Shown in pieces: positions 509-52,348 of a DNA stretch of 64,000 bases. The stretch covers positions 11,110 to 75,109 of the forward strand of contig DATIHF010000006.1 in NCBI GenBank assembly GCA_035480955.1. The letters are read 5' to 3'. Origin of the DNA: Candidatus Saccharimonadales bacterium (GTDB taxonomy: Bacteria > Patescibacteriota > Microgenomatia > Woykebacterales > RBG-16-39-9b). Within the stretch, counting starts at the first letter, position 1, and the number at the start of each line of letters is the position of its first letter. A program made the translations under genes and the position numbers. Under the pieces are notes generated by a model. That model made no database searches. It had not been told where the DNA came from and worked only from the letters and a program-made list of their open reading frames with translations.

Positions 509-1327
509 TTAAACTTTGGACTTTCGCCAGCCAGCAGAAACCGCTTCAGACTCACTGCAAAACCATTTCTCACCTTTTGATTCGTCAATCGTGGTTTGCT
601 CGTAATAGCGCCCACCAGGAACATGGTAAATTTTCTCCCCAGAACTGCTGATATTGCCTTTGATCGTACATTGTCCAGAAGTCGGAGCGAGAGTTACTTG
701 GTAATTGGTGCTGGTCGCTCCCTGGACAGAGCAGGTGCTCCAGAGTCCAAGATTGTTGTCCCGTGCGTAGTTTTCTGCCTCTTGAAACTGTTTTTGAAAC
801 TTAACATCGGGTGGAAAAGTAGCGACTCGGGCAAACCCTTGCCTCACCAAGGTGTCGTTGATGAAATTATCACCAAGATAGACATAGCGCAGCAGTCGGC
901 CGTATCTATCCGTTTCAGAAACGTCTTTGACAAGTTTGACCTTTTTGCCTTCAACCAGCTCTTTATTTTTTGCGGAGGCTTCTTTGCCGTAACACTGTAC
1001 CGTCTTGCGCGGGTCGACTGTCTCGGGAGTGTCCATGCCAATATAGCGCACTTTTTGCCCACCTGAAATCTCGATCGTGTCCCCATCGACTACTTTGGTA
1101 ACCAAAACCCCGTCCGTTGTTTTCTCAGAGGTTTGAGAAGTCGAATTGGAGTTAGGCGAAGTTGGGTTAGAAGTTTGGGAAGTTGATTTAGTAGAATTTT
1201 CTTGTTTGGCAGAGTTAGCGGAATTTTCCGTAGTAAAATTTTGCCCGGCGAAAAAAGCGATGAGAATGAGGAAGAGAATCAAGAGTGGGAAGAAAAGTTT
1301 TTGTCTCATTGAGCCAATAATAGACAA
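509..1327 (-). CDS. secreted thermonuclease (staphylococcal-nuclease-like) with N-terminal signal/TM, S/T/N-rich linker and C-terminal Cys-containing domain
   Basis: VVDGDTIE...VRYIGMDTPE motif typical of the SNase catalytic core. Hydrophobic N-terminus. Low-complexity linker. Conserved C-terminal GEKIYHVPG...WFCSESEA..AGWRKS block. Confidence 0.75.
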   Translation of the reverse strand: MSIIGSMRQKLFFPLLILFLILIAFFAGQNFTTENSANSAKQENSTKSTSQTSNPTSPNSNSTSQTSEKTTDGVLVTKVVDGDTIEISGGQKVRYIGMDTPETVDPRKTVQCYGKEASAKNKELVEGKKVKLVKDVSETDRYGRLLRYVYLGDNFINDTLVRQGFARVATFPPDVKFQKQFQEAENYARDNNLGLWSTCSVQGATSTNYQVTLAPTSGQCTIKGNISSSGEKIYHVPGGRYYEQTTIDESKGEKWFCSESEAVSAGWRKSKV

Positions 1328-1366
1328 GTTTGCAGACTTTTTGAAGTTAGAGTTTAATTAGATTAA

Positions 1367-1864
1367 ATGAGGTTTGAAAATCCCAAGCTAAAAGTTGTAA
1401 TCATCGCAGCACTTTTGTTGATTGCCTTTTTGGCAATGTATCTAGCTCTGAGTGCGGGAGAAACTCATGCGCCAACCCAAACTGCGACTGCTTCTGCTTT
1501 AGCTAAAAATCAGCTCCAAGTTGGTAGCAAAACCATCAGTGTTGAGATGGCCCAAACCTCAAGTGAACTGCGGCAAGGTTTGTCTGACCGAGAGTCTTTG
1601 GAACAGAGTAGCGGAATGTACTTTATTTTAGGAAAAAGAGACTTCACGACTTTCTGGATGAAAGATATGCACTTTCCTCTCGACATCATATGGATTGATG
1701 GAGATAAAATAGTGGGAATTGTGAAAAACGCTCCTGTCCCAACTACAGGTAATATCCCAACCTTTCCTTCACCAGAGAAAGTAACGAACGTACTCGAGGT
1801 CAACGCTGGATTTACTCAAACCAACAATATAACTGTGGGTGATTTGGTAAAAATGGAAAACTAA
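1367..1864 (+). CDS. DUF192 (COG1430) family protein with signal/TM
   Basis: ISVEMAQTSSELRQGLSDRESL...GMYFIL...FWMKDMHFPLDIIWID resembles DUF192. Confidence 0.65.
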   Translation: MRFENPKLKVVIIAALLLIAFLAMYLALSAGETHAPTQTATASALAKNQLQVGSKTISVEMAQTSSELRQGLSDRESLEQSSGMYFILGKRDFTTFWMKDMHFPLDIIWIDGDKIVGIVKNAPVPTTGNIPTFPSPEKVTNVLEVNAGFTQTNNITVGDLVKMEN

Positions 1865-1969
1865 AGATGAGAAAGGATGAGGTAGAGGATTGCAACCGCA
1901 GTTGAGGCGCCAAAGATGAGACCCAAGACTGCACCAGCCCCACTGACAAAAATTTCAAAGAAATCTAGG

Positions 1970-2566
1970 TTAAGCTTTGACGGATTCATACTTTTTAGTT
2001 CCCAGGTGAAGGGCGATTCCTGAAGTAATCAATAGAGCACTTACCCAAACGAAAGCATAGTTGTCTTGCTCACCATTAGCGGTGTTTGGCAAAGTTGAGA
2101 TTGTTAAGACAGTTGGAGTCACAGGAGTGGCCGGAGTGGCAACTGCTGGGGTAGTCGGAGTTCCGACACCAGGAGTTTCCGGATTTGTAGTTTCATTTTT
2201 AGGTTTGTGACCACACCAACCTTCGTTGTCGTCTTCAAAGTCGTCATCGTTTCCACAACCATTGTTGCCGTCTTGATCAGCTTTATCGACTCCACCACCC
2301 ATACCAGGTTTATCTAAACCAGTGTTAAGACGGTCAGGACCCTTGCCATTGTTATCAGGGTCAGAGTTTGATTTACCTTGAGTGAGAGAACCACCCTGCT
2401 CAACAGAACGATCCTTTCCTGAGGGGTGAGCGTTATCACCAGAGTCTGGTGTGTCGTAAACAATTTCAGATTTATTTGAATGAGAGTTACTGGCAAATGC
2501 GGGAGTAGCCGCAATAGAGAAAGCGGCAATTAATGTAAGACTTATAGTTGTGAGTTTCTTAATCAT
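1970..2566 (-). CDS. secreted low-complexity surface protein with C-terminal sortase-type sorting signal (LPNTA + hydrophobic segment + KKYESVKA tail)
   Basis: N-terminal signal peptide MIKKLTTISLTLIAAFSIAATPAFA. G/D/N/P-rich body. LPNTA followed by a TM stretch and a basic tail. Confidence 0.55.
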   Translation of the reverse strand: MIKKLTTISLTLIAAFSIAATPAFASNSHSNKSEIVYDTPDSGDNAHPSGKDRSVEQGGSLTQGKSNSDPDNNGKGPDRLNTGLDKPGMGGGVDKADQDGNNGCGNDDDFEDDNEGWCGHKPKNETTNPETPGVGTPTTPAVATPATPVTPTVLTISTLPNTANGEQDNYAFVWVSALLITSGIALHLGTKKYESVKA

Positions 2567-2784
2567 TGAGGAAGATTATATCACAGCTCATAGTAGTTTG
2601 TCAACTATTATAGGTTGTGTCTCGCTCAGGAGTCGGCTAGTATCTTATAGAAAGTGGGGGGGCTATGGAGAGCAAAGGCGGCCGTGAAGAAGTAAAACGG
2701 GCGCCTTATTAATTTGGTTGCTTTGCTTTACTTCTATCCTGTAGTGTGTTAGGGTCGGTGCGTACCTTAACAAGAAGGAGTTAA

Positions 2785-3408
2785 ATGATGGATCCCTGGG
2801 AAGAAACCTGGGTTAACCATTACGCTGAACTTGGTGTTCCAATGTTCAGTGACGTAAAAGTTTGCAAAAAAGCTTATCGTAAGCAGGCGATGAAATATCA
2901 TACTGACGCGGGTTCTGAGCCAAACAACGCTCGGATGGTAAAACTGAATGCAGCCTTTGAGGTTTTGATCAAAAACCAGGCCAACAAGACACGCTACGAC
3001 CAATATTCCCGTGAAAATAAAATGAGAACAACCTCTGGAACAGGGGCTTCAGCTGGCAGTCCTGGTCCAAGCGGTACCAGAAGAACTCCACCAAGTTCGC
3101 CTAAACCCCCACCGGCATCACCTAAGGTATACAACCCGGTTATTCGAGTTGAGCACCTAGGGTCAAGATTGAAGACTACAACCGAAGGTGAGGCGATAGT
3201 TGAGAAGTTTGTCGTCCACCACGTCAGTGGAGAATTGCCTCCAAATCCACAGCTAGATATTGAGATTGAGGGAATTTTTGAAGAAGCTTTCAGTATCGAT
3301 CAATACCCCAAAAACCGCTTTCCGACGACTGTCGTCGTCAATATCACTCCCCAGTCGACTGGAAGCTATGTCGGCGCGATAAGCTTCCAGATCCTTGACC
3401 CAGCCTAA
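2785..3408 (+). CDS. J-domain protein (DnaJ-like N-terminal domain, HTD variant of HPD) with P/S-rich linker and unknown C-terminal domain
   Basis: YAELGVP..SDVKVCKKAYRKQAMKYHTDAG....LNAAFEVL....RYDQY matches J-domain helices II/III. AAGGAG RBS 5 nt before the ATG. Confidence 0.7.
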   Translation: MMDPWEETWVNHYAELGVPMFSDVKVCKKAYRKQAMKYHTDAGSEPNNARMVKLNAAFEVLIKNQANKTRYDQYSRENKMRTTSGTGASAGSPGPSGTRRTPPSSPKPPPASPKVYNPVIRVEHLGSRLKTTTEGEAIVEKFVVHHVSGELPPNPQLDIEIEGIFEEAFSIDQYPKNRFPTTVVVNITPQSTGSYVGAISFQILDPA

Positions 3409-3418
3409 GGAGGCGAGC

Positions 3419-4129
3419 ATGTCTGAGCAAATCGGTTTGGTCGTACGCAAATCCAGCGAGCCAAACAAAAAGTTGAATCCACAAGGGCAGGCTTACAAGC
3501 AAAAGACAAACCCTGTTTTGGATCTTGTTTTTGTGATCGATACGACAGGAAGTATGAGTGACAAGATTGACAGTTTGTTACGCAAATGCCAAACATTCGT
3601 TGATAAGCTAGCTAGCAGAAAGATCGACTGGCGGATTGCAATAGTTGCTTTCGGGGATCTAACAATCCCAGGAGACAAGATCGTCGCCGCTAGCTTTAGC
3701 AATAAGACAGAGACTGTCAAAGACACTCTAGCAAAAATTCCACGCTTTAACGGCGGTGGCAATGAGGGCGAGTCTTCCTTAGAGGCTCTTCAGAAAGCAA
3801 TGAGTGTATACCAATTCCGACCAAATGCTATCAAAGCTTTTATCTTGTTGACCGACGAGCCAGCTCTGAAGCACCAAAACAGCCCCGAGAGAGTCACAAG
3901 CAGTCTCAGGGAAAGAGGAATTTTGACTTTTGTGATCGCTCCACCACTTCAATACTATAAAGATATGGCCCAAACAACTGGTGGCAAATGGTTCCAGATC
4001 TCAGCGACAACTGACTTTGACTCTATAATCGATATGCTCATTGGGAGTTTGACCGAGGTTGTCGAAGAAGTACAAGAAATCGCCCAAGGAGATGTAGAGA
4101 AATACCTTCGACTTAAAGGAGGTCACTAA
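3419..4129 (+). CDS. von Willebrand factor A (vWA) domain protein with MIDAS-like motif
   Basis: LVFVIDTTGSMSDKI (DxTxS), IAIVAFGD, FNGGGNEGESSLEAL, AFILLTDE and TGGKWFQ are typical vWA/MIDAS blocks. Start moved from the ORF-track TTG at 3395 to the ATG at 3419 because TAAGGAGG overlaps the upstream stop codon. Confidence 0.75.
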   Translation: MSEQIGLVVRKSSEPNKKLNPQGQAYKQKTNPVLDLVFVIDTTGSMSDKIDSLLRKCQTFVDKLASRKIDWRIAIVAFGDLTIPGDKIVAASFSNKTETVKDTLAKIPRFNGGGNEGESSLEALQKAMSVYQFRPNAIKAFILLTDEPALKHQNSPERVTSSLRERGILTFVIAPPLQYYKDMAQTTGGKWFQISATTDFDSIIDMLIGSLTEVVEEVQEIAQGDVEKYLRLKGGH

Positions 4130-4131
4130 CC

Positions 4132-4160
4132 CTGGATTTTTCCGGGGTTATTTTTTGCTT
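4132..4160 (+). terminator. intrinsic terminator after the vWA gene
   Basis: CCCUGGA-UUUU-UCCGGGG hairpin (one G.U) followed by UUAUUUUUU. Confidence 0.45.
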
Positions 4161-4183
4161 AAATAAACTCAGTGTGCTATATA
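4155..4183 (+). promoter_or_regulatory. sigma70-like promoter of membrane-protein paralog A
   Basis: TTGCTT, 17-nt spacer, TATATA. Followed by the conserved GCACATTCACAA box that is also present upstream of paralog B. Confidence 0.4.
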
Positions 4184-4218
4184 GTCACTAGGCACATTCA
4201 CAACCCGATGGAGGGAGA

Positions 4219-4884
4219 ATGCCAAGCAATCGAGTCCGGGTCGATTATGCTCTAAAGGTCATTCCGAAAACTAGACCTCGCCCAACACCAGCTGGACCTA
4301 AAACACCAGTCTACACTTCTACTCCAGCACCAGCTCCAGTATCAATAAGTCCACCAAAGAAATCTGATTGGGATGATTACCCCCTGGGTAAAGTTGGGGC
4401 GTTAGTCTGGGCGATATTCATGCTATTGGTTTTTACAACCGTGATAAGCTACTTCGTCTATAAAGGAACCACAGACGATAGTCCTGATCAAACCTCAGGC
4501 AACAAGTCTTCTGCAGCTGCCTTCCCGACGACAAAAGTACCTGGATATGGCACAGTAACCATGTATCCAAGTAAAAAAATCACCACTGATAACCCTCGTA
4601 TTAACGAGAATACTGTAGCGGATACTTCAGTGCAATTTTGTTTCGTTAATTGGAATAGTAGCAAACCCAACGTTTGTACCTCTTCCTCTCAGATCGTCAA
4701 TGGACAGTATCAGGTATACACCTTACCTGAAGGCCAGTACTGGATATCAGGGGTTAGAAGTAACGGTGAAAAACAGTATGTAGACGGAACAGAGTGGATA
4801 AATGTTTCTGCTGGCTCAAGGTTTACTTTCCATTGCTGGCGTTACACAGAATATGGTAGTGAATGGTTTATCTGCGATGAGTAG
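4219..4884 (+). CDS. single-pass membrane protein, paralog A (cytoplasmic Pro-rich N-tail, TM, Cys-containing extracytoplasmic domain)
   Basis: N-terminal MPSNRVRVDYALKVIPK motif shared with the downstream paralog. TM at ALVWAIFMLLVFTTVISYFVY. GGAGGGAG RBS. Confidence 0.6.
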   Translation: MPSNRVRVDYALKVIPKTRPRPTPAGPKTPVYTSTPAPAPVSISPPKKSDWDDYPLGKVGALVWAIFMLLVFTTVISYFVYKGTTDDSPDQTSGNKSSAAAFPTTKVPGYGTVTMYPSKKITTDNPRINENTVADTSVQFCFVNWNSSKPNVCTSSSQIVNGQYQVYTLPEGQYWISGVRSNGEKQYVDGTEWINVSAGSRFTFHCWRYTEYGSEWFICDE

Positions 4885-4903
4885 TATAAGACAATTTTTT
4901 AGA

Positions 4904-4930
4904 CCCCGAAACTAGAGTTCGGGGTTTTTT
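4904..4930 (+). terminator. intrinsic terminator
   Basis: CCCCGAA-loop-UUCGGGG followed by UUUUUU. Confidence 0.7.
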
Positions 4931-4983
4931 CTTGCTTAATAGAGTAAAATGTACTTAAGCACATTCACAAAAAGAAGGAGAGT

Positions 4984-5580
4984 ATGCCAAGTAATCCAAT
5001 ACGGATAACTTATCGGTTGCGAGTTAAACCAGGCCGTTCAAAGCCAAGCAGAACACCTATTTTCGTTATCCTATTACTTTTCTCGTTGGCTCTTTTAGTC
5101 AGTTTTTTGGTTCTCAAGGGTCAGAGTTATCAAAGCTCTTCTGCGACAAGTTACACGGTGCCGGTTCATAGTTTCATAACGCCAAGCTTTGCAACCCCAA
5201 CTCCTACGTTTAACCAGCCGAGCGTAAACAAAAGTACTTCTTCAAACGAAGTTAAAGGGTCTTTGAAACTTTATTCCACTACTATCTTTTGTCGTAAAGA
5301 AGGTGATTGTAACCCCCCTGGACAAAATCGTTATGACACTTTTTGTTTAGGACCTGTGGGGCAAAGTCCAGGTCTGTTTAACTGTACTCGATACGAAAAC
5401 GGGTACCACATTATCCCGTCTATAATAGCAAGCGGCTTGTACGATATTACAGCGGAGGGGCTCAAAATTTATTTGAAAGTGGGACAGGTAAATATTGTTC
5501 CAGGTCTCACTTCGCTGGTTGACTGTACCATTTACGAATGGAGCGAACGACCAAGCACGGGTACTTGTACTGCTAGATAG
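4984..5580 (+). CDS. single-pass membrane protein, paralog B
   Basis: N-terminal MPSNPIRITYRLRVKPG motif and TM IFVILLLFSLALLVSFLVL. C-terminal domain is Cys-rich and differs from paralog A. AAGGAGAG RBS. Confidence 0.6.
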   Translation: MPSNPIRITYRLRVKPGRSKPSRTPIFVILLLFSLALLVSFLVLKGQSYQSSSATSYTVPVHSFITPSFATPTPTFNQPSVNKSTSSNEVKGSLKLYSTTIFCRKEGDCNPPGQNRYDTFCLGPVGQSPGLFNCTRYENGYHIIPSIIASGLYDITAEGLKIYLKVGQVNIVPGLTSLVDCTIYEWSERPSTGTCTAR

Positions 5581-5602
5581 TCGTACGGATAGAAGAGAGA
5601 TC

Positions 5603-5636
5603 AGGGCGTTCAACAAGTTATTGACCGCCCTTTTTC
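5603..5636 (+). terminator. intrinsic terminator
   Basis: GGGCG...CGCCC stem followed by UUUUU. Confidence 0.6.
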
Positions 5637-5700
5637 TTTGCTTGAATTTCGGTAAACTCAAAGCTTTCACCGCTCCAAAATTTCCTCTAAGAACCTATAG

Positions 5701-5729
5701 TTGAGCTTCTTTGTTTTATTTGCTATAAT
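5701..5729 (+). promoter_or_regulatory. sigma70-like promoter
   Basis: TTGAGC, 17 nt, TATAAT. AAAGGAG RBS before the ATG at 5756. Confidence 0.5.
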
Positions 5730-5755
5730 TTTTTCCCGACGAAAGGAGTCGATCC

Positions 5756-6025
5756 ATGAACCCTGAATTGACCATGCTGCAGTGGGATATCATCGCGATT
5801 GTACGAGAAGGCAACTGGCCTTCGGCAAAGAAGATTCGCGAGCAGCTGGAGAAACGTCATTCTCCCGAAGGTTTGAGCGAGCTCGACGAAATCCTCGACA
5901 TCATGGTTGGGGCAGGATGGATGCAACAAACTCACACTCCGAGAGGTTCGAAAGTCGCCGACCTGAACGAGCGTTATTTTACTGTAACCAAAATGGCGCT
6001 AATACTGTCTCTGGAAGCAGTGTAG
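5756..6025 (+). CDS. small helical protein, possible winged-helix DNA-binding regulator
   Basis: 89-aa helical protein with basic stretches. GC visibly higher than neighbouring genes. Confidence 0.4.
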   Translation: MNPELTMLQWDIIAIVREGNWPSAKKIREQLEKRHSPEGLSELDEILDIMVGAGWMQQTHTPRGSKVADLNERYFTVTKMALILSLEAV

Positions 6026-6038
6026 AAGGGAGTCTCTC

Positions 6039-6299
6039 GTGACGCAACTTGAGCAGCTGACGACGGTCCAGGTTTTCACCTTGGAGCACCTGCGGTTTTC
6101 TTCCGCGAACTGTGCAGAGATTCAGAAAGGGGTAGAGCAGCGTCTCCAAAAGCAGATCAAAAGTGCAGGAGTCTTCATGGCTCAACTGCACGAACTCAAA
6201 CATGCGGGACTGGTCACCTCGGACAAACTCGACGGCATCGCTGTCTACAACATAACCAGTTCAGGTCGAAGTCTGCTTCGAACAGCAACACCTGCTTGA
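6039..6299 (+). CDS. small putative winged-helix transcriptional regulator
   Basis: TTVQVFTLEHL...CAEIQKGVEQ...LHELKHAGLVTSDKLDGIAVYNITSSGRSLL resembles the PadR/MarR-like wHTH pattern. GTG start. Confidence 0.4.
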   Translation: MTQLEQLTTVQVFTLEHLRFSSANCAEIQKGVEQRLQKQIKSAGVFMAQLHELKHAGLVTSDKLDGIAVYNITSSGRSLLRTATPA

Positions 6300-6305
6300 A
6301 ATGCT

Positions 6306-6338
6306 CCGGGAAGTCCCACCAGATTTCCCGGTTTTTTT
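6306..6338 (+). terminator. intrinsic terminator
   Basis: CCGGGAA...UUCCCGG followed by UUUUUUU. Confidence 0.7.
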
Positions 6339-6380
6339 ATTCCTTGATAAACTCTTCACTAGACTCTAAAATAATTCTTC

Positions 6381-7040
6381 ATGATCAAAGTCACCAATCT
6401 CACCAAAACTTACAAAACCGGTGAAACTTCTTTCAATGCCCTTGACGATGTTTCATTGGAGATCCAAAAAGGTGAGTTTGTCGCAATTTTGGGTGCTTCG
6501 GGCAGTGGCAAATCCACTCTGATGCACCTCATTGGTGGCCTGGATAAGCCAACTAGCGGAACTATCGAAGTCGATGAGCAAAATCTCGGCAAACTCAATG
6601 ACGGCAAGCTGGCCCGCTACCGCAATGAAAAAGTCGGCTTTGTCTTTCAATTTTTCAATCTCTTGCAGGGAACCAGCTCGTTAAACAATGTCACCCTACC
6701 TTTGATTTACTCTCGAAAAAAGGTTAGCCGCAAACAAGCGGCCACCGCGATACTCACTGAAGTAGGACTCGCCGAAAAGCTCAAAAACCGTCCCAACCAA
6801 CTTTCCGGCGGCGAGCAGCAGAGAGTCTCGATCGCGAGAGCTCTGGTAAATAATCCCGAGATAATTTTGGCCGACGAACCCACGGGCAACCTTGACTCGA
6901 AAACTGGCTTAGCGATTTTTGAACTTTTGCGAGAACTCAACAAAAAAGGCAAAACGGTCGTGGTGGTGACTCATGACAATAATTTAGCCGAGAAAGCTGA
7001 CCGGGTCATCCGAGTTTCTGACGGGAGAATTGTTGAATGA
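6381..7040 (+). CDS. ABC transporter ATP-binding protein (MacB/LolD/FtsE-type)
   Basis: Walker [10 protein letters not shown], signature [15 protein letters not shown] and Walker [12 protein letters not shown]. Confidence 0.9.
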
Positions 7041-8254
7041 TAATAATTGATTCTTTCAGAATGGCTTTTGCCTCACTCTGGTCGAAAAAATCACGTAGTT
7101 TTCTCTCCATGCTTGGAATAATCATCGGGATCCTGACGGTTGCGAGTCTTTTATCCATTGGCTTCGGAGTCAAAAGTGAGGTAACCAAACAAATTGGAGA
7201 CTTGGGCACTAACTTGATTGTGGTTATTTCTGGCAAACAAACCCAGGACGGCAGCCCCAATCTTTCGGCTTCTTTGGGACAGAGTACTCTCACTGAAAAA
7301 GATTATCTCTCAATTCGCGACAATGTTGTGCAAGTGCAAAATCTATCAATGATGAATCTAATCTCAGGAACTGTTAAAAGAGATACAACTACCATGGACT
7401 CCTCGGTCTTAGTCGGCGGCTCACCTGGACTAGAGAAAGCTTTTACATTCAAACTAAAAGAGGGACGTTTCTTAAATCAGGCTGACGAGGATCAAAAACT
7501 CAAAAATGTCGTTATCGGCTCGAATGTAGTCGAAAAACTTTTCCCAGGAGAAGACCCCTTAGGCAAAACCCTCGAAACTCGCTCAACTCCTTTTACAATC
7601 GTCGGTATCTTGGAAAAGCGCGACACCGCTAGCAATCTCGGTGGGCCAGATTTCAATGCTCTGGTACAAATGCCAGTACACACCAGCTGGGAGCTCACCG
7701 GTAGCGAACAGCTTTTTCGTATCACCATGCAATCCAAAGATTCCGAATCCATTGATGCGGATAAAAAAGCGGTCAAAGAGGCCGTATTAAAAAGTCACAA
7801 AGGGGAGGAGGATTTCTCAGTTTTGACACAAGATGATCTTCTCAAAACAGTCGGCGGGATTTTAAATATCATCACCGCCATGCTTGGCGCGATCTCATTG
7901 ATTTCTTTGTTGGTCGGGGGGATTGGGATCATGAATATAATGTTAGTCTCGGTCTCAGAACGAACTCGGGAGATAGGGATTCGCAAAGCGGTTGGTGCCA
8001 CGCGAGACGCAATATTGCTGCAATTTTTGATTGAGAGTATTATTTTGACTCTCTTTGCTGGTTTGGTCGCGGTAGTGATCTTTGGAACAATCGTGAGTCT
8101 AATCCCCAAAGATTCACCAATTCCAATTCATCTCAATATCAATATTTTGCTCCTCGCCCTGGGTTTCTCGGGAGTGGTTGGAATAATCTTTGGAATCATC
8201 CCCGCAATTGGCGCTTCACGCAAAAATCCGATCGAAGCTCTGCGCTACGAGTAA
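7037..8254 (+). CDS. ABC transporter permease, FtsX/MacB-type (N-terminal TM, periplasmic domain, C-terminal FtsX 3-TM)
   Basis: ATGA start/stop overlap with the ATPase gene. Typical FtsX C-terminus GIGIMNIMLVSVSERTREIGIRKAVGA. Confidence 0.85.
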   Translation: MIIIDSFRMAFASLWSKKSRSFLSMLGIIIGILTVASLLSIGFGVKSEVTKQIGDLGTNLIVVISGKQTQDGSPNLSASLGQSTLTEKDYLSIRDNVVQVQNLSMMNLISGTVKRDTTTMDSSVLVGGSPGLEKAFTFKLKEGRFLNQADEDQKLKNVVIGSNVVEKLFPGEDPLGKTLETRSTPFTIVGILEKRDTASNLGGPDFNALVQMPVHTSWELTGSEQLFRITMQSKDSESIDADKKAVKEAVLKSHKGEEDFSVLTQDDLLKTVGGILNIITAMLGAISLISLLVGGIGIMNIMLVSVSERTREIGIRKAVGATRDAILLQFLIESIILTLFAGLVAVVIFGTIVSLIPKDSPIPIHLNINILLLALGFSGVVGIIFGIIPAIGASRKNPIEALRYE

Positions 8255-8317
8255 AATTCACCTTATAATAATCTAGCTTGTCTTGACAAAATCTCAGCAA
8301 TTTCTCATGCTTATTAT

Positions 8318-9028
8318 ATGAGCAAATTTTCTCCCACCGCTGCAATTTCGTTTGGCTGGAATAGCTTTACAAAAAATGTCGGGTTTTTGATTTTAGTTAC
8401 CCTTATCCCTTTGGGTTTTAGTTTAGTTTCTTTCACTCTCATTGCCTTAATAGATTATTTAGTAGGCAAGTCTTTAGCAGGTTTCGTAAATATTTTGCTC
8501 GTCCCAGCTTTTTATTATTTTTCTTTTGTTATTGCGCTTGGGACGATTAAGGCTATTTTGAATTTGCTGGATAAAGGTCAGGGTGATCTTTCTGATTTAC
8601 TCATCTACACAAAGAATTTCATGATGCTTCTCAACTATCTTTTTGCCTCTATTTTAGCGGGGCTGATCATCTTAGGTGGGTTTATCTTATTTATTATCCC
8701 AGGCATTTATTTTTCGATTAGGCTCAGCCAATTTACTTACTTTTTGATTGATAAAAATCTTGGACCAGTGGACGCAATCAAAGCAAGCTGGGAGGCAACC
8801 AAAGCTAGTATGTTGAATTTAATGGTCTTTGGATTTTTGTCCTTTTTGGTTATTTTGGCCGGTGCCATCCTCTTTGGAATTGGTTTGCTTGTTGCAGCGC
8901 CAATCGTCACCGTCGCTACCGTCTATGTCTACAGACAGCTAGCTGGAGCTAGCCAAATACAAACTCAAGATGCGCCTTCTCCAGTTCAACCTGTAGTACC
9001 AGTTGCAACACCACCGGCAGCGGGATAA
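8318..9028 (+). CDS. polytopic membrane protein, unknown function, Pro-rich C-terminus
   Basis: Several predicted TM helices. C-terminal DAPSPVQPVVPVATPPAAG. Confidence 0.5.
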   Translation: MSKFSPTAAISFGWNSFTKNVGFLILVTLIPLGFSLVSFTLIALIDYLVGKSLAGFVNILLVPAFYYFSFVIALGTIKAILNLLDKGQGDLSDLLIYTKNFMMLLNYLFASILAGLIILGGFILFIIPGIYFSIRLSQFTYFLIDKNLGPVDAIKASWEATKASMLNLMVFGFLSFLVILAGAILFGIGLLVAAPIVTVATVYVYRQLAGASQIQTQDAPSPVQPVVPVATPPAAG

Positions 9029-9034: not shown

Positions 9035-9760
9035 GTGAGAATGCAAACGGTTTTAATCTTTCTTGGAATACTCCTAGTTGGCTATATAATTGTTCAATTT
9101 TTTTACACTTCCCACTATTTTTCAGTTGGTTCAAAGCTCACAAAAACAACTTACGCACGCAAAACAACTTTAGGAAGTTCCAACAATCCAACTTTTAAAC
9201 TCTGGATTGCGGGGGACAGTGTCGGTGCTGGAGTGGGGGCAAGTAGTTTTGAGAATTCAGTGGCGGGACGGTTGGGCGAATATTTTGCCAAAGATCACCA
9301 GGTAATCTTTGAGAATGTTTCCGTAAGTGGTAATAAAGTCGAGGATGTAGTCTCTGGACCCTCCCCAAGCGAGAAACAAGATCTGATCGTGCTGATTGTC
9401 TCCTCTAACAATTTGTTTCGCTTTACTTCAATGAAGGATTTTGCCTCTAATGTACCCAAACTTTTTACCAAGTTTTCTCCACTAGCAGACAAAGTTATCT
9501 TGATCGGGCCGGGAAGAATCTCCAATTCAACCGCAATACCTCTGCCAATGAGACCACTTTATGTACTAGAGGGGCCAAAATATGCCAAGATTCTCAAAAG
9601 CGAAGCAGCAAAATTTAACAATGTAGTTTATGTAGATCCATTGGAACACCCACTTGAAGATAATAAATTTGGAAACATAGAAGCAGCGGATCATTTTCAC
9701 CCCAACGACTCTGGTCACAAATATTGGTTTGATTTAATTGTGGAAAGTTTGAGCAAATAG
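9035..9760 (+). CDS. SGNH/GDSL-family hydrolase
   Basis: KLWIAGDSVGAGVG (GDS block) and DHFHPNDSGH (DxxH block). Confidence 0.7.
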   Translation: MRMQTVLIFLGILLVGYIIVQFFYTSHYFSVGSKLTKTTYARKTTLGSSNNPTFKLWIAGDSVGAGVGASSFENSVAGRLGEYFAKDHQVIFENVSVSGNKVEDVVSGPSPSEKQDLIVLIVSSNNLFRFTSMKDFASNVPKLFTKFSPLADKVILIGPGRISNSTAIPLPMRPLYVLEGPKYAKILKSEAAKFNNVVYVDPLEHPLEDNKFGNIEAADHFHPNDSGHKYWFDLIVESLSK

Positions 9761-31289: not shown

Positions 31290-31652
31290 ATGCAGCCTGC
31301 CATCTCAATCAGCTCATACCTGATTAGCTTGCCTTTGGAATTTCTCAACTGGTGGTTCGTCGAGGCAACTTTCAACCTTTTCAAAATTCTCCGTTTCGTC
31401 CTAGCTGCCGCCCTTCGTTTGTTGGGAGTCGAGTTGCTTTTGAAAACTTTTTTCAAACCCTGGAAAAATGAATACCGAGAAGGGTTGACCCGCTTTGCCC
31501 TTTTCATGGGTATGGGGATCAAAACTTTTATTTTATTTTTTGATTTTTTGTTTTTCTCAGCTTTGATTTTTCTGGAAGGGCTCATTTTAGTAGCTTGGCT
31601 TGCTTTTCCACTGCTTGTAATCTGGGGGGTCTATGCTGCAATTTTCACCTAG
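31290..31652 (+). CDS. small polytopic membrane protein (overlaps the start of the Clp-type ATPase gene by 20 nt)
   Basis: Hydrophobic 120-aa ORF. The antisense ORF 31283..31585 is Lys-rich as expected for the reverse of Phe/Leu codons. Confidence 0.5.
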   Translation: MQPAISISSYLISLPLEFLNWWFVEATFNLFKILRFVLAAALRLLGVELLLKTFFKPWKNEYREGLTRFALFMGMGIKTFILFFDFLFFSALIFLEGLILVAWLAFPLLVIWGVYAAIFT

Positions 31653-34089
31653 TACCAGCAGAGTTTGGCAAGCCGCGACCTTTTGCCTCATCTACAGCTC
31701 ACTTTTGGGGATAATCATCAGACTCTCGGCTTTCATACTTTTGCTGACGACTATCTTGTTACTTCTCACCAATGGCACCAAATTTTTCCCGCCGCTGCTT
31801 TTTTCTCTTTTGTCACTTCTGATTATGTTTGAATTTTTCTATCGTTTTAAAGTCAGCCGCGAAAAGCCCCGCTTCAGCGTCGAAGAAATAAAAGAAACTA
31901 CCAATTTAGCTGATTTAGTTACGCTCCCGCTGGCCAAACTGCTTCTTTCTCACCCTGCTTGGAGCGAAACAAAAAGTCTCATGAATGCGCTGAGTTTTTC
32001 GGAAAGTGTCAAATTTGTCCTTTACCGGTCAGGAATCTCACGGGACAACTTGGGAGCTCTTTTTGCCAACGGGGAAGAGATAAACTTGAACGGCGCGCTG
32101 CAGACTGCGGCAGATATTTCCGCGAAAGAAGGTTGGGTCTACATCGATGAGCTCTCACTGGTCTCAGCTTTGTTCAGCAAATCTGCTCTCCTACAGAAGC
32201 TCCTTTTTGACCGAAACCTCAAGCAAAATGACCTAGACAATATCCTACACTGGGCCCGGGAAGCGCAAAAAGTTTATCTCGAAGATCGACCTTTTTGGGA
32301 ACTTTCGACTTCCTCCTTGGGACTAGGACTAGCGGAGGTTTGGATGGGTGGTTGGACTCTGGAGACTGAAAAATACACCAAGGATATCAACACCGAAGTA
32401 CTCAAAAGAAGTGAGGAATATTTTTTGGTCGGTCGGGGCAAAGAAGTCTCCCAACTTGAACAAGTACTTCTGCGAACCAGCAAGAGAAATGCGATTTTGC
32501 TGGGTGAGCCGGGTCTGGGAAAAACGACAATTGTTTATTCTCTCGCGAGAAAATCCGTGATTGGGGAGCTTCCGGTCGAGCTCTCTTACAAACGCTTCAT
32601 GGAGCTGGATCTCACCTCAATCAATGCTTCAGCGAACGAGGGAGAGATCGAGCAGAGACTCAAAAATATTTTGGTTGAGGTTTCCCATGCTGGGGACGTC
32701 GTGCTTTTTGTTCCCAACATTGAGAACCTCGCTGGCGCGCTTGAAGGCGGAAAGTTTGATATCTCAGGACTGCTTTCTCAGACTTTGAAAGATATTAACT
32801 TGCAAGTCATTGGAACTTCCACACGAGCAGCCTTCCATAAATACATCGAGGACAAAGCAGTTTTTGCCGATTCCTTCGAGGTCATTGACGTGACCGAGCC
32901 AAATACAGACGAGGCGATCAGAATATTGGAAGAAGCAACTCATCTGATTGAAAGTAAAACTGGTGTGAAGATTACTTACAAAGCGATTCTGAAAGCAGTT
33001 GAGCTCTCGGAACGCTACCTAATTGACAAAGTTTTGCCAGGTAAAGCGATCAACCTGGTCGATGAGGCAGCGGCCAATATCGCTCTTTCCGGGAAAAAAT
33101 TGCTGGAAGAGTCCGACATTGAACATATAATTTCTGATAAAGCGAAGGTCCCGGCTGGACTTGCTACTGGAGAAGAGAAAGATAAATTACTCCAGCTTGA
33201 AAAAGTCCTCCACCAGAGAATCGTCTCCCAAGATGAGGCCATCTCGGCTATCTCTCAAGCTGTCAGGCGGGCGAGAACTCTCAAACGAGACAGCAAAAAA
33301 CCAATCGGAGTTTTCCTTTTTCTGGGACCAACTGGAGTGGGAAAGACCGAGACTGCCAAAGCTCTCGCGGAGGTTTACTACGGATCAGAAGAGCGGATCT
33401 TGCGCTTTGACATGAGTGAATTTAACCAGGAAAACAGTGTTTATCGACTCATCGGCTCTCCTCCTGGCTCATCAGAATTTAAAGAAGGCGGCCAGCTCAC
33501 TGAAGCAGTCCGGGTCAATCCTTTTAGTTTGATCCTATTGGATGAGCTGGAAAAAGCCCACAGCAAAGTTTTGGAAATTTTCTTGGCAATTTTCGATGAG
33601 GGAAGGATCACTGACTCTTCAGGACGACCAATTTCTTTTACCAATACAATAATAATTGGAACGTCCAATGCGGGAGCAGAGTATATCCGCGAGCAAATCA
33701 ACAGCGGTAACCCAGCAGATCTGAAAAAATCTTTAATTGAGAAGCTTTTGACTGAAAATACTTTTCGTCCTGAGTTTATCAACCGTTTTGATGATGTGAT
33801 CGTCTATCGACCACTGGATCAGATCGAAGTCACCAAAGTAGTCGAAATGCTTTTGAACAATCTAGCTCGCCGCTTAGAGAAACAAGATTTAACAGTGAAA
33901 TTCACTCCAGCTCTTGTAACCTTTCTAGCCAAAATAGGCTACGATCCACAGTTTGGCGCTCGACCACTCCAGCGAGCGATCCAGGATCAAGTTGAAGCAA
34001 AAATTTCCCAGGCAATACTAGAGGGCAAACTCGCTCGGGGAGCCAAAACCACTGTTACAGCAGCCAACGACCAAGTCACTTTAAGTTAA
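31633..34089 (+). CDS. Clp/Hsp100-family double-AAA+ ATPase with N-terminal transmembrane anchor
   Basis: AAA-1 LLGEPGLGKTTIV. AAA-2 FLGPTGVGKTETAKALA, LLDELEKAH and RPEFINRFDDVIVYRPL. About 60 N-terminal residues form two TM helices, followed by a Clp_N-like repeat. Confidence 0.85.
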   Translation: MLQFSPSTSRVWQAATFCLIYSSLLGIIIRLSAFILLLTTILLLLTNGTKFFPPLLFSLLSLLIMFEFFYRFKVSREKPRFSVEEIKETTNLADLVTLPLAKLLLSHPAWSETKSLMNALSFSESVKFVLYRSGISRDNLGALFANGEEINLNGALQTAADISAKEGWVYIDELSLVSALFSKSALLQKLLFDRNLKQNDLDNILHWAREAQKVYLEDRPFWELSTSSLGLGLAEVWMGGWTLETEKYTKDINTEVLKRSEEYFLVGRGKEVSQLEQVLLRTSKRNAILLGEPGLGKTTIVYSLARKSVIGELPVELSYKRFMELDLTSINASANEGEIEQRLKNILVEVSHAGDVVLFVPNIENLAGALEGGKFDISGLLSQTLKDINLQVIGTSTRAAFHKYIEDKAVFADSFEVIDVTEPNTDEAIRILEEATHLIESKTGVKITYKAILKAVELSERYLIDKVLPGKAINLVDEAAANIALSGKKLLEESDIEHIISDKAKVPAGLATGEEKDKLLQLEKVLHQRIVSQDEAISAISQAVRRARTLKRDSKKPIGVFLFLGPTGVGKTETAKALAEVYYGSEERILRFDMSEFNQENSVYRLIGSPPGSSEFKEGGQLTEAVRVNPFSLILLDELEKAHSKVLEIFLAIFDEGRITDSSGRPISFTNTIIIGTSNAGAEYIREQINSGNPADLKKSLIEKLLTENTFRPEFINRFDDVIVYRPLDQIEVTKVVEMLLNNLARRLEKQDLTVKFTPALVTFLAKIGYDPQFGARPLQRAIQDQVEAKISQAILEGKLARGAKTTVTAANDQVTLS

Positions 34090-49306: not shown

Positions 49307-52300
49307 TTATTGTTTTAATTGGGTCGGTGGAAAGCGGAAAATTTCCACTTCCCCACTTTTTCCTGCTATTGCAGGCTCTTTTTTCTCTTCATTCTGCCCA
49401 CCAACTAACCCAGTCGGCAGGTTTTGATTAAGATTTTCCGGAGTAATTTTTGCTTGTTCTTGCTCTTGCCTAGAGATTGCCCCAGGGTCTGGGTAAGATT
49501 CTGTTCCTTCCAGATTTTGATTGAGCTCTTCAAAACTTTCTACCACGGGAATATTTTTATTAAGATCAACATTGTCTTTCGGCGGCAGAAAAGCGGTGTC
49601 AACACTGTTCAAACTAATTGCAGATGGTTGCGGTGGTGCTTGAGGTGTTTGTATTTGTGGTTGGGTGGTTTCTGGAGCAGGAATTGGCGCCGCAACCGGA
49701 GTTTGTGGTGCAGGAGTGCTTTGTGGTTGTTGAAGAGCCTCTGGTACGAATGTCGGTGGGGTTGGTGCACTAACAGGAGCTTTCAAACTTTCCTCGACCA
49801 GTAAATCTGCCAAGGGAGATCCACCTGAAGTGGCTGGTTGTCCAAAAGCGGGTGTTGTTCTAGCTGGAGCAGGAGTGGCGGCCGCAGCGGCAGCGGCACG
49901 AGCTTCTTCGACGGCCCAGGCGGGCGGCTGAGGTGGCTGGCCGGGAATGAATTTCGTCTCCGTCCATTTTTTGATTAATTTCTCTACCTTTTCGACTTCC
50001 TTACCAAACTTGATGCGGGAGAGCTGAATTGCTTTAGTTGTCATTGCCGTAGCATCAGTTGGAGGTGCGAGAGAGACGGCCGAGAATGGTTTTGATCCCT
50101 GATCGTCAATTTGCAGTTTAATATACATTTCGAATCGACCGAGGTTGATAAAATCATTTTCCAAAAAGACCGGTGAGAATTCTCTTTCCAAAAAGTGCGC
50201 GTCCTGATTCCCAACTCCAAAGACAATCGTGGTACCAACGTTTCCAAAAATAGCATCCCGGACAGTTTCCGGCATTTGCTCGATATACTGATGCGTAATA
50301 ACCAAATCCAATCGGTATTTTCTCGCTTCAGAGAGTATCACTGCAAACGAATCTGTCGCAAAGTTTTGGAACTCGTCAGCGTAAAGGAAGAAATCTTGGC
50401 GACTCTCTTCTGGAATATCGACTCGGCGCATGGCGGCAAACTCCAACTGGGAAACAATCATCGCTCCGAGCAGTGAAGTGTTGTTCGCACCGATACGACC
50501 TGAAGCCAAATTGACGAAGAAAAGTTTTTTGTTATTGATAATATCGTCAACTTTGATCGTGGATTTTGGCTGCCCAACAATATTTCTGATCAGCTCACTG
50601 TTTAAGAACTGTCCAACTTTGTTTTGAATTGGTGCGATCGCTTCGGTGATGAGTCGGTCGTTTTGCTCCAATTTGGCAAACTCGGTTAGCCAGAAGTCTT
50701 TCATTTGCGGATCTTTGATGAGCCCCACGATATATCTGCGGTAGCCTTTATCAACCAAAAGTCGAGTGATCGACAACAGTGAGGTGTTTGGCACCTCGAG
50801 AAGTGTCAAAATACAATTTTTCAAAATGTACTCAAGTCGAGGTCCCCAGCTGTTGGCAAAGTATTTTTTGAAAACGTCAACCAGGGTGTCGGCCATCAGC
50901 GTCCTCTGTCTTGGGTCGACCATCTCCAACATGTTCAATGAGACCGGGTGATCCGCATCAGCTGGATTGAAAATGACTACATCTTCAGCTCGGTTTTCCG
51001 GAACAAATTCAAGCAGCTCGTCAATTAATTGTCCATGGGGATCCAAAACCGCCACTCCCTCACCGTTGCGCATATCTTGAATAATCATGTTTTTGATCAA
51101 AGTAGACTTACCCGTACCAGTTTTTCCAATAATATACATGTGTTTTCGTCTGTCGGGCTTTTTAATTCCGAACGTTTGTTCGTGATCGCGGAAATAAGTT
51201 TTACCCAAATAAGTCACCGCTGAAGTCGGGATATTGAGCGGTGGTTCGCCTTTTTTAGAATGAGTCCAGGCAATCGTAGGTGTCTCAACTGAAAGATTTG
51301 GCAAGTGGAATATCGAGGCCAGCTCTTCGATCGTTAAGACATAGTCGCCACTAGCTCCTTCGGGAAAACTCCTATCACGGTAGCTTTTTACCATAGAAGC
51401 GGTGGTCGGACTGTCCGGATCAGGTTCAAAAGCATTTAAGGAGGCGGTGGAAAATTGTTTGAAAGAAGCAATTGCTGAGGAGAGTTTAGCCTGAGCTTCC
51501 TCTTTGGTGTCAGCAACGGCAACAACACGTATTTTTGTTTCAAAACCGATCTTGGAAAGTTTATTCTCAATCATTTTCAGATCAAGTTCTTGTCCAGCCG
51601 AAAGTCTAGGCGCGAGCTCCGCCCGAGCCGGAAGCGGCGGCTCTTTGGGACCGGACATCATGTAAGGAAGGATATTTGTTCCGACTGAGAGAATATGCTT
51701 ACCGACATCAATTGCGATATCTCCAGGAGCCAGAGAAACGGGATGTTTACCCTCTCTAACCATTTTCACGTAGTCATGGCCGCGATCTTGCCAAAAGTCA
51801 TCGATTGGCCGCACCATAATTTGCACCCAAATTTGTTCAGTTTTTCGCACGCTACCTAGTGCACTGGTAATTGCCGCTAGCGGATCCACCTCAAAGTCAC
51901 GGAAAGTTTTGATTGGAAAAATAAAATCTTTGGCGAGAGCCAGCTCTGTTCCGATGACCACAGCATTGTCACTAACGCTTTTAGAATAATCAACTGCTTC
52001 TCGGATCTCAGCATCAGGATATTGTGCGTAGATTTGGCTTTCAACGAAACTTTTGAAACCTCTTGGGGTAAAACAGTAAAAATTGATTCCAGAGGAAGAG
52101 CTGGCCATCTCTAGTGAGATGTGTTCTTGCAAGTCTGGAGTAAAACGCAGTAAACCGTGGAGCGACGCGAACATCTGCTCAGCCGCTATTGGCAGTTTTT
52201 CATTTTCTTTGGGAAGTCGAATAGAAAGGAGTACTCCCTCCCCAATTGCTTCTTTCTTACTATCCCCTTTTTCCTGCGATAAGGCAGAACGGTAAGCCCA

Positions 52301-52348
52301 GAAAAAAGCGATTATTACGATAACTAAAATGCCGCCTATTACTAGCAT
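49307..52348 (-). CDS. membrane-anchored TraD/TrwB/VirD4-like (FtsK-HerA superfamily) P-loop ATPase with long P/Q/A-rich C-terminal tail
   Basis: N-terminal TM. Walker A IIGKTGTGKSTL, VLDPHGQLIDEL and Walker B FFLYADEFQNF. Roughly 250-aa low-complexity C-terminus. Confidence 0.65.
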   Translation of the reverse strand: MLVIGGILVIVIIAFFWAYRSALSQEKGDSKKEAIGEGVLLSIRLPKENEKLPIAAEQMFASLHGLLRFTPDLQEHISLEMASSSSGINFYCFTPRGFKSFVESQIYAQYPDAEIREAVDYSKSVSDNAVVIGTELALAKDFIFPIKTFRDFEVDPLAAITSALGSVRKTEQIWVQIMVRPIDDFWQDRGHDYVKMVREGKHPVSLAPGDIAIDVGKHILSVGTNILPYMMSGPKEPPLPARAELAPRLSAGQELDLKMIENKLSKIGFETKIRVVAVADTKEEAQAKLSSAIASFKQFSTASLNAFEPDPDSPTTASMVKSYRDRSFPEGASGDYVLTIEELASIFHLPNLSVETPTIAWTHSKKGEPPLNIPTSAVTYLGKTYFRDHEQTFGIKKPDRRKHMYIIGKTGTGKSTLIKNMIIQDMRNGEGVAVLDPHGQLIDELLEFVPENRAEDVVIFNPADADHPVSLNMLEMVDPRQRTLMADTLVDVFKKYFANSWGPRLEYILKNCILTLLEVPNTSLLSITRLLVDKGYRRYIVGLIKDPQMKDFWLTEFAKLEQNDRLITEAIAPIQNKVGQFLNSELIRNIVGQPKSTIKVDDIINNKKLFFVNLASGRIGANNTSLLGAMIVSQLEFAAMRRVDIPEESRQDFFLYADEFQNFATDSFAVILSEARKYRLDLVITHQYIEQMPETVRDAIFGNVGTTIVFGVGNQDAHFLEREFSPVFLENDFINLGRFEMYIKLQIDDQGSKPFSAVSLAPPTDATAMTTKAIQLSRIKFGKEVEKVEKLIKKWTETKFIPGQPPQPPAWAVEEARAAAAAAATPAPARTTPAFGQPATSGGSPLADLLVEESLKAPVSAPTPPTFVPEALQQPQSTPAPQTPVAAPIPAPETTQPQIQTPQAPPQPSAISLNSVDTAFLPPKDNVDLNKNIPVVESFEELNQNLEGTESYPDPGAISRQEQEQAKITPENLNQNLPTGLVGGQNEEKKEPAIAGKSGEVEIFRFPPTQLKQ

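Follow-up and report, generated by a model that had tools for sequence, protein, structure and literature searches.

A conserved pairing of a J-domain protein with a von Willebrand factor A protein, and its His-Thr-Asp variant in a Saccharimonadales genome

The stretch of DNA analysed here, referred to as the window, is 64,000 nt long and derives from Candidatus Saccharimonadales bacterium (assembly GCA_035480955.1, contig DATIHF010000006.1). A 1345-nt segment of it (positions 2785-4129) holds two consecutive genes on the forward strand, the first encoding a class-C J-domain protein whose His-Pro-Asp (HPD) tripeptide reads His-Thr-Asp (HTD), and the second a cytoplasmic protein with a von Willebrand factor A (vWA) domain and a metal ion-dependent adhesion site (MIDAS). 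Where Hsp70 works is determined by J-domain proteins, and the MoxR AAA+ chaperones usually have vWA/MIDAS proteins as their target adaptors. A preliminary description, made from the letters of the window, had proposed a dedicated two-gene module, and this proposal is borne out by the comparison with other genomes: the two genes are adjacent and co-oriented across phyla, often overlap by 4 nt, and are fused in one contig. The pair therefore very probably represents a dedicated and conserved module; both domains and the general logic are familiar, and the module, as far as can be told, has remained unnamed.

With regard to the first gene, its product matches the Pfam DnaJ profile (PF00226) over residues 11-72 and profile positions 1-63 of 63, with an E-value of 6.5e-9 and 36.2 bits against a curated cut-off of 27.8, in agreement with the J domain first proposed. 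The Pro/Ser-rich linker that had been reported is also present. The region behind it, previously taken for an unrecognised C-terminal domain of 100 residues, is instead an Ig-like beta-sandwich of ~95 residues that is common to nearly all J partners. Its AlphaFold2 model is all-beta with six long strands (predicted local distance difference test, pLDDT, 80.8; predicted template modelling score, pTM, 0.68), a sequence search of the PDB returned no match to it, and it retains the conserved positions of the family. A conserved acidic loop of this domain was considered as a MIDAS ligand and dropped, since the residue is not conserved across the alignment. The protein is not DnaJ proper: the class A model TIGR02349 matches residues 12-86 only, with 45.6 bits against a cut-off of 377, all NCBIfam DnaJ matches are confined to the J domain and far under their cut-offs, and the G/F region, zinc finger and C-terminal domains of DnaJ are lacking. 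No specific NCBIfam family matched either the J or the vWA protein.

The HTD tripeptide was read as first reported, with an ACT codon in its centre, and the protein thus departs from the HPD of functional Hsp70 co-chaperones. The whole 1345-nt segment, ACT codon included, is identical in the metagenome-assembled genome GCA_964508465.1 and in the Logan assemblies SRR9179560 and SRR9179563, which match the window with 99.95% identity or more along the overlap. These three assemblies represent the same population, so that a one-off assembly error is ruled out and the age of the HTD change is not addressed. An artefact, in which a sequencing or assembly error had altered an ordinary DnaJ that lies beside the vWA gene by coincidence, is hardly credible: it has only the prior rarity of HPD variants in its favour, whereas four assemblies, from at least two sequencing runs, agree on the codon, the protein lacks the remaining DnaJ domains, and the adjacency is kept in 60 of the 78 related loci with adequate flanks. 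Two circumstances that the preliminary description had named as speaking against it, a sequencing error and a housekeeping dnaK/dnaJ context, have consequently both fallen away, the first through the three other assemblies and the second through the lack of Hsp70 in the window (see below). HTD is a real, lineage-specific exception and not a family hallmark. J proteins with an altered HPD are termed type IV or pseudo-J-domain proteins, and their meaning is considered an open question (PMC13254874); judged by its sequence, the window protein belongs to this class.

The second gene encodes, as proposed, a vWA protein (VWA PF00092, E 3.2e-14) in which no signal peptide or transmembrane (TM) segment was found. 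Its DTTGS (residues 41-45) and LLTDE (residues 143-147) blocks, described at first as MIDAS-like, align with the blocks DIVFLIDGSGS and VVITDGE of the integrin alpha-M MIDAS and are invariant in 22 members of the family. The MIDAS pattern consists of D41-x-T43-x-S45 and D146 (in T145-D146-E147), with metal binding predicted only, and an invariant loop, G112-G113-x-N115-x-G117-E118-S119 (GGGNEGES), is a candidate for the Thr-equivalent MIDAS loop. The invariant blocks of the family are VIDTTGSM, FGDLT, GGGNxGESSLEA and TDEPA, and a conserved helical C-terminal tail ends in GxVxKYLxLK. AlphaFold2 yields a confident vWA fold (pLDDT 84, pTM 0.81) with a helical C-terminal tail; residues 1-17 are modelled below 50 pLDDT and the model stays weak to about residue 30, and the N-terminal extension of ~30 residues is likely disordered.

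The Shine-Dalgarno (SD) sequence that had been noted over the stop codon of the J gene is indeed there, the TAA lying inside TAAGGAGG, an overlap that fits translational coupling. In many relatives the J and vWA genes themselves overlap by 4 nt, as in L007 and L015 (Table 1). A terminator-like hairpin, detected in a consensus scan directly behind the vWA stop codon, suggests that the two genes form a bicistronic unit, although terminator-like sites in this region are not more numerous than the shuffled expectation.

The conservation of the pairing was assessed in 80 loci from species-representative genomes and 80 from metagenomes, scanned with custom hidden Markov models for the J domain, the vWA family and the beta domain. 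The metagenome scan was seeded with the vWA alignment, the alignments of Patescibacteria-type J proteins being too divergent as a seed. More than 620 vWA-family proteins were found, at roughly 45-60% identity, and the taxa named in their records are Saccharimonadales, Levyibacteriota, Shapirobacteria, Woykebacteria and other Patescibacteria, Dormiibacterota (many), Chloroflexota, Clostridia and one Pseudomonadales metagenome-assembled genome. A DnaJ-domain gene lay directly upstream on the same strand in four of the first five vWA relatives examined; in the fifth, from Anaerolineae, a multi-TM protein took its place. Among the 92 non-identical loci on which the counts are based, which represent Patescibacteria, Dormiibacterota, Chloroflexota and Clostridia, the J gene is directly upstream of the vWA gene in 47, directly downstream in 13 and fused to it in 1; another 18 have adequate flanks and no J gene, nearly all of them of Chloroflexota/Anaerolineae type, and in 14 without J the flank is too short to judge. 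One locus, L147, is counted twice, for a fusion and for a downstream J gene, and the distinct loci with a J gene number 60 of the 78 with adequate flanks. In contrast, no J gene was found in any of 47 loci with only distant vWA domains.

The fusion occurs on metagenome contig Ga0181520_10005086, where an ORF (open reading frame) of 560 residues combines DnaJ (residues 4-68) and VWA (residues 357-505); its residues 104-178 match a fragment of the Pfam Hsp70 profile (positions 229-300). The same locus encodes a second J protein of 678 residues with one TM segment. Furthermore, the architecture of the J partner is nearly constant, with a J domain, a linker and a beta-rich domain of ~95 residues that can be aligned across the set. 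A profile search with the beta domain returned 161 proteins; among the 120 listed nearly all carry PF00226, and the few that do not are short, probably truncated gene calls. Besides J and vWA, clustering of neighbouring ORFs, which was noisy owing to antisense ORFs in high-GC contigs, revealed no third gene common across phyla, the other neighbours being lineage-specific.

The state of the HPD motif differs between the family as a whole and the clade of the window. Across the collected loci, 60 of 66 distinct J proteins keep HPD, so that the family overall looks like a working Hsp70 co-chaperone. Departures are seen in the window (HTD), in L102 (HED) and in the downstream J protein of L147 (HDD), all three with a vWA neighbour, in the L147 fusion (NPD), in a J-like protein of L095 that has lost the motif and has no vWA neighbour, and in L162, where the ORF is truncated and the vWA neighbour was not scored. 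A word-based homologue search with the window J protein retrieved nothing except itself, and an exhaustive HMMER search covering 1.84 billion representatives was needed to find its nearest relative, at 35% identity, together with ~15 representative clusters that share its full J-plus-beta architecture. Seven of 15 aligned sequences, the window protein included, are without HPD. P0245 (L177) has HAD, and behind its gene the contig ends within a vWA-like gene of which 23 codons are present; P0253 (L179) has HPR and an adjacent vWA gene, as does P0242, which keeps HPD. P0251 and P0258 read GVD, and the motif is deleted in P0262 and in the strongly degenerate P0248 (L095); P0251 has no vWA gene in the 246 nt available downstream (L178, a short contig), and P0248 none on its 63-kb contig. 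The Pro-only variants thus keep their vWA partner, and both wrecked motifs that were checked have no vWA neighbour, though the cases are few. According to these alignments, HPD has been eroded several times, mostly in Patescibacteria-type relatives, the window's own clade, and four independent variants (HTD, HAD, HED and HDD) alter Pro alone and keep His and Asp. The earlier suggestion of a degenerate J domain used as an adaptor holds in part, as erosion recurs in this clade and the great majority of the J proteins are canonical.

These data also bear on whether the J-like protein is a decaying remnant, in which the Pro-to-Thr change killed the co-chaperone function, the gene is drifting and only the vWA protein is functional. 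Identity to the nearest relative is only 35% for the J protein as compared with 58% for the vWA protein, the J domain scores 36 bits on the Pfam profile where other partners reach 45-73 bits, the motif is lost outright in P0248, P0251, P0258 and P0262, and 18 loci of the family, as in Anaerolineae lineages, have a vWA gene and no J gene. Nevertheless, the reading frame of the J gene is uninterrupted, a strong AAGGAG stands before it, the gene is coupled to that of the vWA protein, and the beta-sandwich has not lost its conserved positions. His39 and Asp41 are kept, as are Y31, R32/K33 and F58 of helices II and III, which we take from the mutagenesis literature to be the equivalents of residues needed in E. 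coli DnaJ. Moreover, the four Pro-only variants speak for constraint rather than drift, and a remnant is accordingly an unlikely explanation. The unequal identities indicate that the J partner evolves faster while the MIDAS stays invariant. Since the two residues that contact Hsp70 are retained and only the central Pro is replaced by Thr, the window J domain has probably lost strength, or taken on a new use as a tether or scaffold that does not stimulate Hsp70, and is not simply dead. In DnaJ, H33 and D35 contact Hsp70 directly, and molecular dynamics simulations indicate that P34 orients both (PMC13012618).

A link to the membrane is suggested by two observations. Firstly, some J-beta proteins (in L009, L017, L026, L043, L044, L123 and L139) carry a C-terminal TM segment, some with a large ectodomain, the L123 protein being 1032 residues long with Laminin_G_3 and the L139 protein having PD40 repeats; these fusions place the J and beta domains on the cytoplasmic face of the membrane in those lineages. 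Secondly, the window has two single-pass membrane proteins downstream of the pair, and the Pro-rich tails attributed to them are present, as K/R/P-rich N-terminal tails. The two resemble each other in their first ~17 residues (48% identity over 25 residues) and nowhere else, and this shared tag, MPSNxVxVxxxLxVKP in the window, precedes a Pro-rich stretch and the TM segment. Its broad form across loci, M-x-S/G-N-x-V/I-x-V/I-x-x-x-L/V-x-V-K-P, recurs in membrane proteins beside J/vWA or J-like genes in five other loci, which makes six independent loci with the window (Table 1). Each of these proteins has the tag, a K/P-rich stretch and a TM segment, the remainder being different except for those of L013 and L179, which are homologous (E 3e-12). 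The tag pattern has a single other match, an internal one, in 1.36 Mb of six-frame translation, and we know of no description of it. The call of a gene opposite the L179 tagged protein is probably wrong. Given that some lineages fuse a TM segment and ectodomain to the J-beta protein, the tagged proteins resemble a membrane half of this assembly that has become a separate protein, and the first of the two in the window is a candidate for an accessory factor or a client. The recurrence of the tag is a strong lead rather than proof. The idea that the pair acts on the neighbouring membrane proteins is consequently favoured by the tag in five other loci and disfavoured by the lack of homologues in most related loci and by the hairpin in between, and the proposed J-vWA-membrane protein neighbourhood is conserved in its J/vWA part and not in its membrane proteins, which are not conserved as families.

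Table 1. Positions of the features in the window and in related loci (locus numbers preceded by L)
Locus	Feature	Position	Strand	Remarks
Window	Class-C J-domain protein	2785-3408	+	207 aa (206 aa from second Met); J domain aa ~9-80, Pro/Ser-rich linker aa ~82-113, Ig-like beta-sandwich aa ~113-207
Window	HTD tripeptide, H39-T40-D41	2899-2907	+	cat ACT gac; ACT codon 2902-2904
Window	Junction	3406-3421	+	TAA 3406-3408 inside SD 3406-3413, 5 nt before ATG 3419-3421
Window	Cytoplasmic vWA protein	3419-4129	+	236 aa; Pfam VWA, VWA_4, VWA_2; N-terminal extension 3419-3520
Window	Terminator-like hairpin	4127-4150	+	10 pairs and T-run
Window	Single-pass membrane protein	4219-4884	+	tag MPSNRVRVDYALKVIPK (tag region 4219-4270), Pro-rich linker, TM ~aa 54-76, Cys-containing beta-rich ectodomain
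Window	Second single-pass membrane protein	4984-5580	+	tag MPSNPIRITYRLRVKPGR (tag region 4984-5035), TM ~aa 21-45, different ectodomain
Window	Secreted-looking protein	1970-2566	-	198 aa
Window	Sigma-70-like promoter match	2604-2575		perfect match
Window	Tandem small proteins	5756-6025; 6039-6299	+	89 and 86 aa
Window	Terminator-like hairpin	6306-6331		strong
Window	MacB-type ABC transporter pair	6381-8254		
Window	ClpB/ClpC-type double AAA+ chaperone	31633-34089	+	818 aa
Window	Type IV coupling protein	49307-52348		
L013	Tagged membrane protein	2777		MPSNKVTVSVQLKVKPKP; directly upstream of J
L012	Tagged membrane protein	827		MPGNRVNVRLVVKPK; upstream of J
L007	Tagged membrane protein	6747		MEGNKVVIQVRARV; overlaps vWA stop
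L179	Tagged membrane protein	5402-6136	+	MDGNPAKVVIQLTVKPKP; 245 aa; downstream of vWA; missed by gene caller
L179	Called gene opposite the tagged protein	5431-5907	-	158 aa
L095	Tagged membrane protein	3147		MPSNKVTVKIRLDV; upstream of degenerate J-like gene
L007	J gene/vWA gene	5438-6004/6001-6768		4-nt overlap
L015	J gene/vWA gene	4345-4899/4896-5627		4-nt overlap
L147	J-vWA fusion	1053-2735		560 aa
L147	Second J protein	3335-5371		678 aa
L004	Type IV secretion genes	2261-6099		PrgI-like, TraC-like, VirB4/DUF87
L009	Type IV secretion system pilin	9114-9422		
L045	Hsp70-vWA and flanking genes	2066-8801		Peribacillus kribbensis DSM 17871

The N-terminal extensions of the vWA proteins, ~30-45 residues long in the window and its homologues, fall into distinct types that track the adjacent J gene. 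Proteins paired with J have, for example, the strand-like ..GLVISVGxG..IKVQG.. or MSKIVPNPS..KVVRMEIGQDS, and unpaired ones the Lys-rich MGKTGKKLFxNLLGSGKNE.. or MKWKKRVNPFARPE... This covariation is suggestive only, and a strand resembling the tag was not enriched at the vWA N-termini in a search with an alternating-hydrophobic pattern (8 of 89, against a background of 5.6%). A difference of this kind in a low-confidence extension would be expected if the J partner recognised it, and the vWA protein could then itself be the client, with the J protein as its dedicated assembly or metal-loading chaperone or its inhibitor, no further target, and membrane proteins that are unrelated. The strict adjacency and coupling of the pair and the lack of a third component conserved across phyla speak for such an arrangement. 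It appears improbable nonetheless, given that the fully invariant MIDAS implies a ligand of the vWA protein's own and that the TM/ectodomain fusions on J-beta proteins and the recurrent tagged proteins point to a membrane-linked target.

Taking these results together, we lean slightly towards a membrane-proximal pair of adaptors that would target Hsp70, with the interaction of the two proteins, the use of Hsp70, the membrane localisation and the role all presumed. The J domain would be tethered through the flexible Pro/Ser linker to the Ig-like beta-sandwich, likely the part that binds the partner or client. Together with the vWA protein, the beta-sandwich would make up a specific complex on the inner side of the membrane, or would act on one. 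To this complex the J domain of most lineages would recruit the housekeeping DnaK (Hsp70) and trigger its ATPase, and Hsp70 would then remodel, assemble or release the partner bound at the MIDAS. This logic would resemble that of the pairs of MoxR (AAA+) and vWA proteins, with Hsp70 and a J protein replacing the AAA+ ATPase. The membrane link could take two forms, being built in where a lineage fuses J, beta domain, TM segment and ectodomain, and being provided by separate tagged membrane proteins (MxSNxVxVxxxLxVKP, beta-strand-like) in Patescibacteria-type loci. In the window lineage, the J domain would act in its weakened or repurposed form, as a non-stimulating tether or scaffold. A bolder version, which must be regarded as doubtful, would combine all of these elements into an unrecognised membrane-proximal system in which the Ig-like domain or the vWA protein captures beta-strand tags and Hsp70 is recruited, and in which the repeated, Pro-specific erosion of HPD in Patescibacteria is a switch favoured by selection, turning a co-chaperone that stimulates the ATPase into an Hsp70 tether that does not, or into an Hsp70-independent scaffold.

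Several points weigh against the adaptor mechanism. Even conservative changes of HPD abolish the stimulation of Hsp70 (PMC13254874), and HTD may therefore abolish Hsp70 activation altogether. No Hsp70 gene is found in the window or at any J-vWA locus, which leaves the use of the housekeeping DnaK as an assumption, and the 18 loci of Anaerolineae/Chloroflexota type without an adjacent J gene imply that the vWA protein can work without J nearby. Additionally, the tagged membrane proteins are seen only in Patescibacteria-type loci, searches for homologues of the two window proteins in related loci returned none, the statistics of the tag are soft as the motif was defined after being seen, and the terminator-like hairpin of the consensus scan separates the vWA gene of the window from the membrane-protein genes.

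The lack of Hsp70 in the window, stated from the outset, was confirmed by checking the ORFs of more than 550 residues and by the absence of the PROSITE Hsp70 signatures in all frames. The ORFs of this size encode a P-type ATPase, a Clp-type AAA+ protein, a type IV coupling protein, a Na+/H+ exchanger and a PBP (penicillin-binding protein), and an ORF of 631 residues suspected to be DnaK was rejected as the P-type ATPase. Large chaperone genes in the window are limited to that of the ClpB/ClpC-type double AAA+ chaperone, and the type IV coupling protein lies far from the pair. Upstream of the J gene and divergent from it, a gene with a perfect match to a sigma-70-like promoter encodes a secreted-looking protein that is rich in G, D, N and P and has a C-terminal hydrophobic segment and a weak LPXTG-anchor match (E 0.011). 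Downstream of the membrane proteins, two tandem small proteins have weak winged-helix/PadR-like matches (E 0.001 at best) and are followed by a strong terminator-like hairpin, a further one lying after the first membrane-protein gene, and then by the MacB-type ABC transporter pair. Neither the two small winged-helix proteins nor the LPXTG-like protein had homologues in related loci in a homology search.

The surroundings of the pair in other loci raise the question of an anti-phage or conflict system assembled from vWA and chaperone components, like the MoxR-vWA ternary systems and the GAP1-N2 GTPase systems, in which sensing or thresholding would fall to the J-vWA pair. Kaur et al. (2020; PMC7159879) describe conflict systems near the membrane that join vWA, Hsp70 and GrpE with a beta-sandwich (FNIII) protein to which DnaJ is fused. 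A distant relative of the vWA protein (27% identity) is fused to the C-terminus of a 688-residue Hsp70 in Peribacillus kribbensis DSM 17871 (L045), with a second Hsp70-like gene before it and a Colicin-DNase/WHH nuclease and a dynamin-like GTPase after it, a locus that looks like a conflict system of GTPase/Hsp70 type. Furthermore, the pair of L005/L006 (JGI Ga0633504_0004478, Ga0683577_0000215) has a phage-type integrase on its upstream side and an rve transposase on the other, with a HEPN_Swt1/DUF499 gene nearby, which hints at occasional mobility, and two loci, L004 and L009, have type IV secretion genes beside the pair. Conversely, the PADLOC-DB v2 defence models gave no significant match for any of six proteins, all matches being below threshold (TerY E 0.032, 11.7 bits; others E 0.02 or weaker), no vWA-family member was found in phage or plasmid collections, and conservation beside the pair does not extend to any effector, GTPase, MoxR, STAND or protease gene, only J and vWA being common across phyla. 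The contexts in Dormiibacterota and in the window consist of ordinary housekeeping or transport genes, and a role in conflict is thus judged quite unlikely.

If the adaptor mechanism applies, a conserved operon of J and vWA genes would connect Hsp70 to a specific target in a novel manner, in poorly known phyla such as the Candidate Phyla Radiation (CPR)/Patescibacteria, Dormiibacterota and Chloroflexota. Canonical HPD members and independent variants (HTD, HAD, HED, HDD and HPR) that keep the partner gene form a matched test set and, if the erosion is indeed a switch, would offer a natural series in which canonical and type IV J proteins can be matched against each other, their partner being the same. 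CPR bacteria live attached to host cells, and a membrane-linked module with variable ectodomain proteins may, speculatively, bear on their surface biology.

No paper on a J/vWA pairing was found, in keeping with the preliminary description, which knew of no such system; the literature covered is incomplete, and the term undescribed is provisional. The closest analogues are known systems that share some of the components. The MoxR-vWA pairs (RavA-ViaA, CbbQ-CbbO, NorQ-NorD and BchI-BchD; the "ternary systems" of Kaur et al., 2020, PMC7159879) likewise place a chaperone component beside a cytoplasmic MIDAS vWA protein whose presumed role is to bind the target, a peptide or a protein, and they share with J-vWA a tight linkage, a spread over many phyla and, in some cases, a membrane-proximal setting. 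However, J-vWA has no adjoining MoxR/AAA+ gene, either in the window or at those loci whose neighbours carry Pfam annotation, its motor would be an Hsp70 encoded elsewhere, and neither an effector nor a third "ternary" component is conserved. The GAP1-N2 GTPase systems of the same source, with Hsp70, GrpE and FNIII-DnaJ, resemble the present loci in a J domain fused to a beta-sandwich, in vWA proteins in related neighbourhoods and in their membrane association. They differ in having FNIII repeats in place of a single sandwich of ~95 residues and in their taxa, those here being Patescibacteria and Dormiibacterota, and no GTPase, GAP1, Hsp70, GrpE or tubulin gene was found in the window or related loci.

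A small standalone cytoplasmic MIDAS vWA protein is also typical of the TerY/YegL type, which in the TerY-P triad is accompanied by a PP2C phosphatase and a Ser/Thr kinase. No kinase or phosphatase gene occurs in the window neighbourhood or related loci, the PADLOC match to TerY is not significant, and the family of the window vWA protein has invariant GGGNxGES and TDEPA motifs of its own, unlike the TerY/YegL type. One source labels a member of the family 'YegL'. With regard to the J protein, DjlA, DjlB and DjlC of E. coli, the latter two with HscC, are specialised, membrane-anchored class-C J proteins that target Hsp70 to clients at the inner face of the membrane, and DjlB and DjlC tolerate the HPD variant HPE (PMC13254874). 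They have no sequence relationship to the window protein outside the J domain; DjlA has an N-terminal TM segment and neither an Ig-like domain nor a vWA partner, and DjlB and DjlC adjoin their own Hsp70 (HscC), which has no counterpart here. Finally, the type IV J-domain proteins, such as Pam16/Tim16, DNAJB13 and those of Plasmodium, share a recognisable J fold and an altered HPD with the window protein, and are presumed unable to stimulate Hsp70 and proposed to be scaffolds, regulators or tethers (PMC13254874). As opposed to Pam16-Pam18, the window protein is bacterial and has no paired canonical J protein nearby, and it is set apart from the type IV proteins in general by the alteration of Pro alone with His and Asp kept, by its membership of a mostly canonical family and by the retention of its partner gene.

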